From the IMG/VR virus record IMGVR_UViG_2703718781_000003: 4,479 nucleotides of DNA; one strand, 5' to 3'. Shown here piece after piece: positions 2 to 4,479 of the stretch. This DNA comes from a virus (lineage: Duplodnaviria; Heunggongvirae; Uroviricota; Caudoviricetes). The notes under the pieces were generated by a model. It was given only the letters and a program-made list of their open reading frames with translations, had not been told where the DNA came from and searched no databases. A program made the position numbers and the translations under genes. Every line of letters starts with the position of its first letter. Position 1 is the stretch's first letter.

Positions 2-421
2 ACCACGGCATACCGTGATGGTGCGGGTATCTGGACCATCTGCCGCGGTGCCATCTTGGTGGATGGTAAACCTGTCGTTCCGGGCATGAAGTTGTCGAAG
101 GAAAAATGCGACCGGGTTAACGCCATTGAGCGTGATAAGGCGCTGGCATGGGTGGAGAAAAACATCAAAGTGCCGCTGACCGAACCCCAGAAAGCGGGGA
201 TCGCGTCATTCTGTCCGTACAACATTGGTCCCGGTAAGTGTTTCCCGTCGACGTTTTACAGACGAATTAATGCAGGTGATCGAAAAGGTGCCTGCGAAGC
301 GATTCGCTGGTGGATTAAGGACGGTGGCAGAGACTGCCGTATTCGTTCAAACAACTGTTACGGTCAGGTATCCCGTCGTGACCAGGAGAGCGCGCTGGCG
401 TGCTGGGGAATCGACAGATAA
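2..421 (+). CDS. Phage endolysin, lysozyme type (T4/P21-like, GH24-like), C-terminal portion; 5' end lies upstream of the window
   Basis: Frame 2 is open from the window edge to TAA at 419-421. Translation begins TTAYRDGAGIWTICRGA..., which resembles the catalytic Asp/Thr region of T4/P21-type phage lysozymes (P21 R has ...VGVWTVCHGHTG...). It is not similar to the lambda R transglycosylase. It sits immediately upstream of the Rz/Rz1 spanins. Confidence 0.85.
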   Translation, partial: TTAYRDGAGIWTICRGAILVDGKPVVPGMKLSKEKCDRVNAIERDKALAWVEKNIKVPLTEPQKAGIASFCPYNIGPGKCFPSTFYRRINAGDRKGACEAIRWWIKDGGRDCRIRSNNCYGQVSRRDQESALACWGIDR

Positions 422-577
422 GAAGAATATTTTGCTGAAAAATGAGGTTTGCTCACACGGACGGATAACACGAAATCCTGCGAACTGACAAAACCTAAGT
501 GAATAAAAGTAAAAACCACGTTTGTTGGCAGCAAGCGGGGTTTTGTGTTTCTGACCTTGGATAAGGCAAGGGAGAAC

Positions 578-760
578 ATGGAAAAGTATAAACGAATTCT
601 GTTGAGGTTGACTATGAAAAACGGCCTTGAACTGAAAGCGCCAGTAACTGATGACATCAGCAGAGCACAGGCTTTTGCTATTAAGTGGGTGGCGGTCGGT
701 ATTGCTGTGTCTCCGATGCTGTATGGGCTGGCAAAACTGGTCATTGCGTTGAAATCGTGA
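578..760 (+). CDS. Hypothetical small protein (60 aa) with a C-terminal hydrophobic, probably transmembrane, segment; inserted between endolysin and Rz
   Basis: ATG at 578 is preceded by a Shine-Dalgarno-like AAGGGAGAA 5 nt upstream; TGA stop at 758-760. The C-terminal stretch [22 protein letters not shown] is hydrophobic. It is co-oriented with the late operon. No homolog recognised by eye. Confidence 0.45.
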
Positions 761-772
761 AGAGGATTAAAC

Positions 773-904
773 ATGTCAGACAAACTCATAATGCTGGCGA
801 AGATCCTCTGTGTAATCGTCGGCATTTCATTTTCACTAATGCTGGTTGCTCTTTTTCTTTCCATGGGCTGGATGATGTTATCTTCGTCGGGGCTGCTGGG
901 GTGA
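773..904 (+). CDS. Hypothetical small single-pass membrane peptide (43 aa)
   Basis: ATG at 773 is preceded by AAGAGGA 6-7 nt upstream; translation is [43 protein letters not shown], mostly hydrophobic. Its TGA stop (902-904) overlaps the GTG (901-903) that aligns with the lambda Rz start, a GTGA coupling arrangement. It is absent from the supplied ORF track, presumably because it is short. It is in the same frame as the 578-760 ORF, separated by one TGA. Confidence 0.4.
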
Positions 905-1374
905 GCATAAACCGAATGCTTTCCGCGTTTACCGTTATTCTGCTGGTGGTCTGTGGTGCGCTTAGTCTGGGGCTGAATCATTACCGCGATAACGCCATCA
1001 CCTACAAAGCGCAGCGCGATAAAAAAGCCAGAGAGCTGGAGCTGGCAAACGCAACCATTACTGATATGCAGGTGCGCCAGCGCGATGTTGCTGCGCTCGA
1101 TGCAAAATACTCGAGGGAATTAGCCGATGCGAGAGCTGAAAATGAAACTCTGCGTGCTGATGTTGCCGCTGGTCGTAAGCGCCTGCGGATCAACGCCACC
1201 TGCTCCGGTACCGTGCGTGAAGCCACCGGCACCTCCGGCGTGGGCAATGATGCCGCCGTCGAACTCTCTCCGGTTGCTGGACGAAACGTTCTCGGTATCA
1301 GAGACGGAATCATCAGCGACCAGGCTGCATTGAGAATGCTTCAGGAATATATCCGTACTCAGTGTATTAACTAG
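901..1374 (+). CDS. Rz: Rz i-spanin (inner-membrane spanin subunit)
   Basis: Translation ...[52 protein letters not shown]... is near-identical to lambda Rz as remembered, with an N-terminal TM segment followed by a coiled-coil region. The start is assigned to GTG 901 because GTG-AGC aligns with the lambda Rz start ATG-AGC (MS...); the alternative start is ATG 916. Stop is TAG at 1372-1374. Confidence 0.88.
1127..1333 (+). CDS. Rz1: Rz1 o-spanin (outer-membrane lipoprotein spanin subunit), embedded in the +1 frame of Rz
   Basis: Translation [44 protein letters not shown]... matches lambda Rz1 (MLKLKMMLCVMMLPLVVVGC...CVKPPPPPAW...). It has a lipobox-like VSAC and a proline-rich mature region, and lies wholly inside Rz in a different frame. 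Confidence 0.82.

Positions 1375-2588: not shown

Positions 2589-2614
<26 letters not shown>
2069..2614 (+). CDS. Nu1: Terminase small subunit (gpNu1 family); N-terminal DNA-binding domain diverged from lambda, C-terminal two thirds near-identical to lambda Nu1
   Basis: Translation [36 protein letters not shown]... then ...[60 protein letters not shown]...LSEYIEQSD. From ASEADLQPG onward it matches lambda Nu1 as remembered. TGA stop at 2612-2614. Confidence 0.95.

Positions 2615-4479
<1,865 letters not shown>

Follow-up and report, generated by a model that had tools for sequence, protein, structure and literature searches.

Two small genes, here called ORF1 and ORF2, lie between the endolysin gene and Rz in the 4,479-nucleotide stretch of viral DNA that has been analysed (the window), part of an E. 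coli prophage. Both are real protein-coding genes, each specifying a membrane peptide with a single predicted helix, and the site that they fill, in the late operon between the genes for endolysin and spanin, is an accessory slot prone to recombination. The order of the parts within this slot is fixed, a conserved spacer being followed by a swappable cassette, a small-peptide gene and then Rz. Regarding function, our best guess, held with low confidence, is that these are inner-membrane accessory peptides which are expressed late and act at lysis. They represent abundant and conserved "known unknowns" within one of the best-studied gene cassettes.

The slot extends from the lysozyme stop (421) to the Rz start (916) and holds ORF1 (578-760, plus strand) and ORF2 (773-904, plus strand). 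The lysozyme stop and the limits of both ORFs had been given exactly in an earlier note made on this DNA from its letters alone, and RefSeq has the same two CDSs (WP_072095843 and WP_001280927), both with ATG starts. The alternative Rz start at 901 offered in that note is unused, the start given by RefSeq being 916 in an E. coli O145 chromosome with 100% identity. Upstream lies the 3' part of the endolysin gene R (2-421, plus strand; stop TAA at 419-421), coding for a lysozyme (Pfam PF00959, E 6.5e-23; phrog_7 endolysin, E 2.8e-55) which in the identical O145 locus is RefSeq WP_000992128; a full-length copy of the protein begins MNAKIRYGLSAAVLALIGAGASA and has an N-terminal SAR (signal-anchor-release)-like segment. 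Downstream, Rz, the i-spanin (916-1374, plus strand; Pfam PF03245, E 1.2e-39; phrog_13 Rz-like spanin, E 2e-70), corresponds to the RefSeq 'lysis protein' WP_000947213. Rz1, the o-spanin, is contained within it in another frame (1127-1333, plus strand, in the ORF list), with a lipobox and an internal Met as the likely start, and homologous embedded lipoprotein genes are annotated within Rz in Sakai. In lambda, R (45493-45969) and Rz (45966-46427) overlap by 4 nt with no insert between them, in agreement with the earlier note, and the K-12 Qin genes rrrQ and rzpQ overlap by 4 nt likewise, also with no insert. The region had been described as one AT-rich insertion of about 480 bp carrying small membrane-protein ORFs. 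The ORFs stand, but the single insertion does not, since the segment resolves into a spacer, a swappable cassette of hairpin plus ORF1, and a constant ORF2; it is, moreover, only mildly AT-rich (43-49% GC, against 50-57% in the flanking genes).

The coding character of both genes is apparent from the way in which they vary. The pN/pS ratio is 0.16 for ORF1 and 0.51 for ORF2, compared with 0.7-1.9 in the other plus-strand frames of the locus and 0.37 in Rz (six haplotypes only). Conservation in related prophages, which had been proposed as a check, was found for both, every distinct full-length haplotype sampled being intact (24/24 for ORF1 and 21/21 for ORF2), and alignments of the two families, including diverged members found later, display conserved residue patterns. 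The Shine-Dalgarno (SD)-like sequences noticed at the outset are also present, AAGGGAGA at 568-575 ahead of ORF1 and GAGGA at 762-766 ahead of ORF2. A quite different reading is that the real gene is a 205-codon ORF on the opposite strand (981-364), of which ORF1 and ORF2 would be the shadows. Such an ORF does exist and spans the whole region, and, as it shares its third codon positions with ORF1 and ORF2, a similar substitution pattern would be seen in it. However, the distance between its flanking stops varies from 71 to 251 codons across related loci, it has no PHROG match and it is unannotated in the records examined; furthermore, an open minus frame is to be expected here whenever TTA, CTA and TCA codons are avoided on the plus strand. 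The probability left to this reading is practically negligible. An upstream extension of the Rz frame (685-1374) was also rejected, as a compositional shadow, because the third positions of that frame coincide with the second codon positions of ORF2, which are T-rich.

The 60 amino acids of ORF1 comprise a basic part at the N-terminus and a membrane helix towards the C-terminus, predicted at about residues 32-58. Its hydrophobicity is marginal (best 19-residue Kyte-Doolittle mean 1.9, Hessa-scale sum +3.8), two lysines (36 and 53) lying within the segment, and AlphaFold2 places helices at residues 2-16 and 23-59, with a pLDDT of about 90 over residues 31-60. Met13, with GAGG before it, is a putative second start. 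ORF2, with 43 amino acids, is a very hydrophobic single-helix peptide (best 19-residue Kyte-Doolittle mean 2.89, Hessa-scale sum -3.8), modelled by AlphaFold2 as one helix over residues 2-38 at a mean pLDDT of 89. The two transmembrane-like segments proposed in the earlier note are supported both by hydrophobicity, strongly for ORF2 and marginally for ORF1, and by the AlphaFold2 helices. According to the positive-inside rule, both peptides would be oriented with the N-terminus in. Neither has the make-up of a spanin, since only five residues of ORF2 (39-43) and a single one of ORF1 (residue 60) extend past the predicted helix, and neither carries a lipobox, Cys13 of ORF2 being preceded by K-I-L.

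Both genes are already annotated, as hypothetical proteins in RefSeq and as plain members of PHROG families which have no functional annotation, so that membership says nothing on function. Full-length HMM matches of ORF1 were obtained with phrog_1115 (E 6e-42), phrog_4493 (E 3e-29) and phrog_3246 (E 1e-18), residues 1-60 aligning with profile positions 8-67 of 67 in the first of these (E 5.9e-42), and residues 1-43 of ORF2 align with positions 7-49 of 49 in phrog_4906 (E 3.1e-21). These are the sole matches, and no family of known function includes either gene, in line with the earlier failure to assign them by eye. Profile scans of both peptides with Pfam, NCBIfam and PADLOC gave nothing significant, DUF3930 appearing with E 0.13 for ORF2 only, and no family of PADLOC-DB, a library which omits some exclusion proteins, matched either peptide at E up to 1. 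Neither of the two showed homology to a holin or any other lysis protein, to defence proteins or to known toxins, and the similarity of ORF2 to the N-terminal helix of Rz, to the holin and to ORF1 is a matter of composition only. In the literature on lysis cassettes no description of the two genes was found, and none of the top-ranked papers carries the Sakai tags ECs2740 or ECs_5740. A preprint on the Enterobacteriaceae microproteome leaves prophage or lysis genes unmentioned, and the supplements of a Sakai Ribo-seq study of small genes have no entry at ORF1 or ORF2, a source which is uninformative for repeats and for late genes in uninduced cells. Both genes are common among E. coli prophages and Shiga-toxin (Stx) phages: ORF1 DNA is present in 1,555 of 5,426 complete E. 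coli genomes (about 29%) and ORF2 DNA in about 31% of them. Homologues of ORF1 are found in Escherichia and Salmonella, while the ORF2 family, with 29 clusters among 1.84 billion representatives, bears names only from E. coli.

The first part of the slot, a conserved non-coding spacer or 'left arm' 3' of the endolysin gene (422-510, plus strand), was delimited by alignment with an Ant-type Stx1 phage. The sequence is near-identical between ORF1-type phages and one such Ant-type phage up to about position 515, a related spacer (GGATAACACRAAATC...) is found 3' of an unrelated GH19 endolysin in Salmonella, and a consensus scan gave no plus-strand promoter-like site within it. Positions 469-482 are predicted to be able to pair with 535-548. 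The cassette consists here of a bidirectional terminator hairpin, a leader and ORF1, whereas Stx phages have the antirepressor gene Ant instead. The hairpin (511-548, both strands) is GC-rich, lies between an A-run and a T-run, is terminator-like each way and forms the 5' end of the mobile ORF1 cassette; the terminator scan matched 519-537, followed by GGGTTTTGTG. It is located upstream of ORF1 homologues in every context examined, with the exception of a tandem pair of Salmonella paralogues (L094/L095). Its stems vary compensatorily (CCCCG/CGGGG, CCCCGG/CCGGGG, CCCCGA/TCGGGG and CGCCCG/CGGGCG), with unrelated loops. When ten variants were folded singly, all ten folded, the energies being -14 to -24 kcal/mol for the plus strand and -7 to -23.5 for the minus strand, the window's copy, which has an A mismatch, being the weakest. 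Between ORF2 and Rz the terminator scan gave no such hairpin, the one upstream of ORF1 being the only one.

Among annotated loci, the junction takes the form of ORF1 plus ORF2, Ant plus ORF2, other small peptides only, no annotated gene, or a direct R/Rz overlap. At least three small-peptide families are found in the slot, in varying numbers and with mosaic N- and C-termini, and the presence of the peptides is patchy across related prophages. In the GER2 subfamily an ORF1-like gene adjoins Rz in the place of ORF2, its stop 1 nt before the Rz start. ORF1 itself has been found after four endolysin types (SAR lysozyme, M15, GH108 and GH19), and in Salmonella its homologues also occur after tail-fibre genes near prophage ends, far from lysis genes and once as tandem paralogues. 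The slot is a tidy example of lambdoid mosaic assembly, with its spacer, a cassette having its own bidirectional terminator, and a short ORF abutting Rz.

Much of this would also suit a cargo unrelated to lysis, dedicated to superinfection exclusion, to anti-defence or to a host membrane protein target, and placed in a hotspot where the lysis site is merely tolerated. The slot is hypervariable and also hosts Ant, a non-lysis protein, and the changing peptide families with their mosaic termini, as well as their patchy occurrence, speak for such a reading. Moreover, the ORF1 relatives 3' of tail-fibre genes are typical of cargo, not of lysis machinery, and count against a lysis role. The concept of the moron, reportedly defined by Hendrix and colleagues in HK97/HK022, with lambda bor and lom as examples, comes close to this description. 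ORF1 and ORF2 resemble morons in being small extra genes, present or absent at the same fixed junction among close relatives, in a swappable cassette of GC content slightly below that of the neighbours. A classical moron, however, is transcribed in the prophage from a promoter of its own and is followed by a terminator, whereas a consensus scan detected no promoter belonging to ORF1 or ORF2 and the terminator is upstream of the gene. The classical moron picture is weakened for both of these reasons. In fact, no plus-strand sigma-70-like promoter was found in 300-2100 by this simple scan, which is blind to weak or non-sigma-70 promoters, and with a terminator upstream as well, one would not expect the genes to be active in lysogens, the setting in which exclusion is most important. 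The lack of PADLOC matches for either peptide and the strict position of ORF2 beside Rz also argue against cargo, which is a possible but rather unlikely explanation and would, if it proved correct, make for a routine result.

The same two features, no promoter ahead of either ORF and a terminator upstream, suggest the late expression on which the lysis-accessory reading is based. Both ORFs would be expressed solely upon read-through of the late operon by Q-modified polymerase, alongside holin, endolysin and spanin, and the likeliest role of the peptides would be that of non-essential inner-membrane accessory factors of envelope disruption. Lambda lyses normally and, like Qin, has no insert, which means that the peptides are inessential for lysis. 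ORF2 in particular might tune the timing or the efficiency of the final spanin-dependent steps or, alternatively, might do no more than bring ribosomes to Rz. For ORF1 a looser association is envisaged, that of a mobile membrane peptide whose silencing in lysogens may be due to the terminator upstream of it and perhaps also to an antisense RNA.

The association of ORF2 with Rz is a close one. In the examined loci with both genes, ORF2 lies directly before Rz whatever is upstream, an adjacency which holds with either SAR lysozyme or M15 endolysin. Its stop is 11 nt from Rz in the window, and the gap is 7 or 11 nt in 63 of 68 distinct loci, a spacing which, judged from the sequence, is compatible with translational coupling. 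Wherever there is any cassette between the endolysin gene and Rz, a short ORF ends 1-11 nt before the latter, irrespective of its family. Together with the direct R/Rz overlap in lambda and Qin, this regularity favours a reading in which the peptides do little, ORF2 being mainly a translated spacer that passes ribosomes to Rz once a cassette had parted it from R, and ORF1 a selfish hitch-hiker on a mobile terminator module. The pN/pS ratio of ORF2 points the same way, being near that of Rz (for which only six haplotypes were available), and so moderate a constraint also counts against a lysis role. Nevertheless, ORF1 is strongly constrained, and ORF2 has residues which would be unneeded in a pure spacer. 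All intact members, when aligned, share K4, G17, S19, F20, S21 and W33, and even members about 50% diverged keep as (near-)invariant K4, a G/C-I/L-S-F-S core, W33 and a C-terminal SGLxG. Peptides of so little consequence are considered very unlikely.

The region around the ORF1 start gives rise to another interpretation. The leader (549-577, plus strand) contains the SD sequence and a small hairpin, CCTTG-N7-CAAGG (555-571), able to occlude it. Its sequence is conserved in copies from both E. coli and Salmonella, apart from the first three bases of the loop, which vary, and the minimum-free-energy fold pairs 545-579, including the SD and the AUG (z -2.3), a predicted structure for which the copies offer no compensatory changes. 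On the minus strand, a hypothetical promoter-like site (585-614; TAGTCA, 18-nt spacer, TATACT) would give an antisense RNA of about 70-75 nt, starting near 578, ending at the hairpin terminator and covering the SD and start codon of ORF1. According to this interpretation, ORF1 would be a toxic membrane peptide under antisense control, as in type I toxin-antitoxin systems or P22 sar/ant, and the predicted RNA would suppress leaky translation of ORF1 up to the point at which it is outweighed by late transcription. In hok/sok, an example of the type I systems, and in P22, where the sar antisense RNA covers the ant ribosome-binding site, the likeness is that of a short hydrophobic peptide gene with an opposite-strand promoter-like site and a terminator placed for an RNA complementary to the ribosome-binding site. 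In addition to this suitable geometry, the hairpin has a T-rich tail on the minus strand in all variants examined, and both peptides have the size and the one membrane helix of type I toxins (under about 60 aa; Kyte-Doolittle, AlphaFold2), the size and hydrophobic character of ORF1 being typical of these. Synonymous variation is depleted in ORF1 codons 2-20 (5/18) compared with codons 21-60 (30/38; Fisher p 3.6e-4), and the diverged GER2/phiSTEC1575 subfamily keeps TATACT and the 18-nt spacer, with an improved -35, TGGACA, while its protein differs at those codons.

Set against these points, the site is the sole promoter-like match in 300-2100, where 2.1 are expected from shuffles, and it does not exceed chance. 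The -35 is lost in the Salmonella tail-fibre copies, the predicted antisense RNA folds with no exceptional stability (z -1.4), the scan revealed no promoter for a toxin mRNA, and the synonymous constraint may instead reflect a translation-initiation structure or a second start at Met13. Unlike hok/sok and P22 sar, the antisense RNA is here a prediction, and no sequence or Rfam similarity to known pairs was found. A scan of the whole window with Rfam at E up to 1 gave nothing in 422-915, the AgvB and AsxR families being unmatched; these prophage anti-sRNAs map upstream of lysis genes and not in the slot. One spurious Rfam match, to a plant microRNA, was obtained at an inverted repeat near cos. 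Furthermore, the list of Hfq-bound orphan RNAs in Table S2 of Tree et al. 2014 (Hfq-CRAC) has no peak at the copy in Sakai prophage Sp14, ECs_2740/ECs_5740 (2691727-2692053). The orphan EcOnc11 of the same Hfq-CRAC work lies downstream of Rz in the Ant-type prophage Sp10. Antisense control of a toxic ORF1 is regarded as quite unlikely.

Returning to accessory peptides acting at lysis, their possible partners can be judged from the company they keep. ORF1 and ORF2 are found with a class II holin and SAR lysozyme, or with a two-gene holin and an M15 or GH108 endolysin, and ORF1 additionally with holin_3_1 and a GH19 endolysin. Since the holins and endolysins concerned are unrelated, the peptides are not the specific partners of one holin type. 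Association with one specific holin, as would characterize an antiholin, was not found for either of them, and a holin-specific antiholin role is weakened accordingly. In this prophage family a phage-21-type pinholin (class II holin, PF04971) is encoded upstream, and ORF1 and ORF2 resemble it as small membrane proteins of the lysis cassette; they differ from it in having one helix each, not two, and in being 3' rather than 5' of the endolysin gene, and the PF04971 profile gave no match to either at E up to 1. Over a short stretch the ORF1 helix resembles pinholin TMD2 (QWVAIGVLGSLLFGL), with a BLASTP E of 0.001 in a single comparison and a block-shuffle p of 0.004. This resemblance is nominally unusual, yet it is not counted as homology. 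Descent of ORF1 from TMD2 was rejected, as a clean profile against the cognate holin gave an hhalign probability of 6.7%, the initial 92% having been obtained with a chimera in the alignment. The holin-ORF1 chimera (L180) represents a deletion with its junction at 10 nt of identical sequence.

A further comparison is offered by phage Mu, which is said to encode a 'releasin', a membrane protein of the lysis cassette regulating the Mu SAR endolysin. The likeness is in the presence of a small lysis-cassette membrane protein which is neither holin, endolysin nor spanin, the endolysin of the window's family also starting SAR-like. However, ORF1 and ORF2 also accompany M15, GH108 and GH19 endolysins, which argues against a role specific to the SAR lysozyme, and no sequence relationship with the releasin is to be expected.

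A bolder proposal, to which only a small probability is given, is that the single-helix peptides of the endolysin-Rz slot in lambdoid phages (the ORF1 family, the ORF2 family and phrog_6632) constitute an unrecognised class of lysis modulators. They would work at the inner membrane, for example by binding the helices of Rz or of the pinholin and so determining the moment at which spanins or holins fire, and ORF1 would also be under the control of a cis-antisense RNA that ends at its bidirectional terminator. Shiga toxin is released upon lysis of the cell by Stx phages, and any factor affecting the timing or efficiency of lysis could therefore affect toxin release and phage yield. If this proposal were true, lysis in Stx phages, nearly all of which have ORF2, and with it the release of toxin, would be subject to a control point that has escaped study. 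ORF2-like sequence adjoins Rz in at least 191 phage records, mostly of Stx converting phages, and for the phages with both genes (the PhiR12 and PhiR5 series) the listed host is laboratory E. coli K-12 or C.

The window corresponds to the late region of a lambdoid prophage, and several E. coli O145 chromosomes are 100% identical to it over 400-930. RefSeq annotates the O145 locus, in order, as a class II holin, a YdfR-family protein, lysozyme, two hypothetical proteins, a "lysis protein" (Rz), a hypothetical protein and the small and large terminase subunits. The earlier note had reported two small ORFs, each preceded by a Shine-Dalgarno-like sequence, between endolysin and Rz. Both were recovered at the positions it gave, with good Shine-Dalgarno sequences, as ORF1 (578-760) and ORF2 (773-904), lying between the lysozyme gene, which ends at 421, and Rz with its embedded Rz1 (916-1374). 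The lambda arrangement given there is also correct: since R and Rz overlap by 4 nt in lambda, and likewise in K-12 Qin, the 494 nt separating lysozyme and Rz here are extra DNA. The AT-richness claimed for this segment holds in that GC content falls, the drop being modest. Similarly, the hydrophobicity claimed for both products is extreme in ORF2 and marginal in ORF1, where two lysines lie inside the segment; AlphaFold2 predicts a single long helix for each.

Comparative analysis of copies extracted from about 170 related loci indicates that both ORFs are real genes. In fact, all 24 distinct full-length haplotypes of ORF1 and all 21 of ORF2 were intact, and pN/pS was 0.16 and 0.51, respectively, with 0.09 for lysozyme, 0.37 for Rz and 0.7-1.9 for the other plus-strand frames. 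Among complete E. coli genomes (5,426), 1,555 carry ORF1 DNA and 1,674 carry ORF2 DNA, single genomes having as many as seven copies. The two small membrane-protein genes are abundant, conserved and already annotated as hypothetical proteins, matching PHROG families without assigned function (phrog_1115/4493/3246 for ORF1, phrog_4906 for ORF2). A 205-codon ORF spanning the region on the opposite strand was dismissed as a shadow: it matched no family, and relatives have it at lengths anywhere between 71 and 251 codons.

The extra DNA had been described as an insertion, and its alignment with an Ant-type Stx1 phage resolves it into three separate pieces. The two are nearly identical between the lysozyme stop and about 515; beyond that point, some 900 bp including the Ant antirepressor gene stand in the Stx1 phage where the window has a hairpin (511-548), a leader and ORF1; and the alignment resumes from ORF2 onward. 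What stays constant is therefore ORF2, whereas ORF1 and Ant can replace one another. In the Sakai prophages, Sp10 and Sp11 have Ant, a 48-aa ORF2 homologue and then Rz, while Sp14 has ORF1 (ECs_2740), ORF2 (ECs_5740) and then Rz. The non-coding spacer (422-510) is kept in Ant-type Stx phages, and in Salmonella a related form follows a GH19 endolysin. This junction can also be occupied by phrog_6632, a third family of small peptides; in one locus (L006, 1724-1819) its 32-aa member, MAEKLSTWKFILIWLVFVIMASGYFIGQIRWW, is left without annotation and stops 1 nt short of Rz. Another (L005, 1600-2163) holds four small hydrophobic ORFs in tandem, with N- and C-termini mixed. Many chimeric proteins have been created by gene callers from such mosaics.

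About 30 nt 5' of each ORF1 homologue examined, except for a tandem Salmonella paralogue pair, lies a GC-rich hairpin with an A-run on one side and a T-rich tail on the other. Since the stems differ among variants in a compensatory manner, the loops being unrelated, and folding gives stable structures on both strands for all of them, this is a conserved, bidirectional, intrinsic-terminator-like element of the ORF1 cassette; the window's copy, which carries a mismatch, is the weakest. Given this upstream hairpin and no plus-strand promoter-like site from the lysozyme gene to Nu1, ORF1, ORF2 and Rz/Rz1 should, following established lambda biology, be transcribed only by the antiterminated polymerase of the late operon. 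The 3' half of the terminator together with its U-tract (535-548) can also base-pair with segment 469-482 (fold z -2.9), a pairing which could be an alternative to the terminator.

The region has a single promoter-like site, located on the minus strand within the 5' end of ORF1 (614-585; TAGTCA, 18 nt, TATACT), and a transcript from it would span the Shine-Dalgarno sequence and start codon of ORF1 and stop at the hairpin. Such an antisense RNA is a lead only, and that ORF1 is a toxic peptide under antisense control seems improbable. In favour of the RNA, codons 2-20 show significantly reduced synonymous variation (p 3.6e-4), and a diverged subfamily keeps the -10 and spacer, with a better -35, though the encoded residues differ there. 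Nevertheless, one promoter-like match does not exceed the chance expectation, the tail-fibre copies have lost the -35, the predicted transcript folds unremarkably, and an Hfq-CRAC survey of Sakai shows no orphan RNA at the site. The Hfq-bound RNA EcOnc11 (Tree et al. 2014) lies about 75 nt 3' of Rz in Sakai Sp10, on the strand opposite the late operon (minus strand, 1946819-1946867 of the L172 record), 3' of a minus-strand hypothetical gene; its equivalent is absent from the window. EcOnc12, in Sp9, has a near-identical offset (about 5.03 kb) from an AgvB-type sRNA locus.

The ORF1 family extends over Escherichia and Salmonella, wider than that of ORF2, and changes context among loci: after SAR lysozyme, GH108 endolysin or, in a P22-like prophage, GH19 endolysin; between Ant and Rz; and, in Salmonella, after tail-fibre genes near prophage ends, once as tandem paralogues. 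The latter (47 and 55 aa; L094, 3856-4168) lie 3' of a SASA-type tailspike gene and 5' of a DUF1353 gene at the prophage end. That ORF1 is mobile, occurs away from lysis genes and interchanges with Ant, together with a patchy distribution, favours generic cargo, and a non-lysis role of this kind for the two peptides, although rather unlikely, has to be considered. The diverged subfamily (phages GER2 and phiSTEC1575-Stx2k; ...KYKRFFLRLSIMKG...AFAIRIVAIAVLVWAIRWW) sits directly 5' of Rz or of a small lipoprotein gene. The conserved N-terminal KYKRxxLRL speaks for initiation at the ATG at 578; a second start is possible at Met13, which has a GAGG ahead of it, and many genomes have ORF1 called as a 48-aa form. 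Prophages whose endolysin is of the GH108 or M15 type encode, 3' of ORF1/ORF2-type peptides, a lipoprotein of 60 aa (lipobox LVGC; phrog_7528, no PHROG function; L008, 1882-2064; L176, 2649-2831), with no Rz-like gene seen near it.

The ORF2 family, judged from database searches, is very narrow. All named matches among 5.8 billion proteins were from E. coli, and searching 1.84 billion cluster representatives with a profile returned 29 clusters only, among which fragments and frameshifted calls were frequent. Conserved even in diverged members are K4, a G/C-I/L-S-F-S core, W33 and, at the C-terminus, SGLxG. ORF2-like sequence occurs in at least 191 phage records, mostly Stx converting phages. 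Moreover, an Rz-length ORF begins 7 or 11 nt past the ORF2 stop in 63 of 68 distinct loci, the adjacency being the same with SAR lysozyme or M15 peptidase upstream. This strict adjacency, the late-operon position, the upstream terminator and the location in the membrane speak for accessory peptides that act at lysis, which we regard as a tentative reading, or for an ORF2 that mainly serves to couple translation into Rz. A largely passive role is very doubtful.

The tools run assigned no known activity to either peptide, and no paper discussing them was found in the searchable literature; the analysis adds the dissection of the junction, the terminator travelling with ORF1, the ORF2-Rz link and the rejection of several tempting homologies. 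Among the latter, a short resemblance of the ORF1 helix to pinholin TMD2 vanished once clean profiles were compared. The comparison had been prompted by a holin-ORF1 chimera, encoded on a 554-nt metagenomic scaffold (L180, 43-222), in which a pinholin N-terminus is fused to the C-terminal helix of ORF1 at a 10-nt identity (AGTGGGTGGC) common to both genes. With ORF2 and a second ORF1 fragment 3' of the fusion, it looks like a microhomology deletion removing ydfR and the lysozyme gene.

In the position taken in lambda by bor, which is encoded there on the opposite strand, a 74-aa ORF directly 3' of Rz (1398-1622; phrog_2571, function not assigned by PHROG; WP_000735655) lacks a hydrophobic segment and matched neither Pfam nor PADLOC. 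Nu1 (2069-2614) is followed by the terminase large-subunit gene (2589-4295), broken by an N run at 3210-3292 that represents masked or unresolved source sequence. Just 5' of Nu1 lies a long, near-perfect inverted repeat (1985-2047; GGTCCGACATGAAA ... TTTCATGTCGGACC), on which an Rfam microRNA match, accompanied by a terminator-like match, was spurious; the repeat is presumably part of the cos/terminase-binding region.
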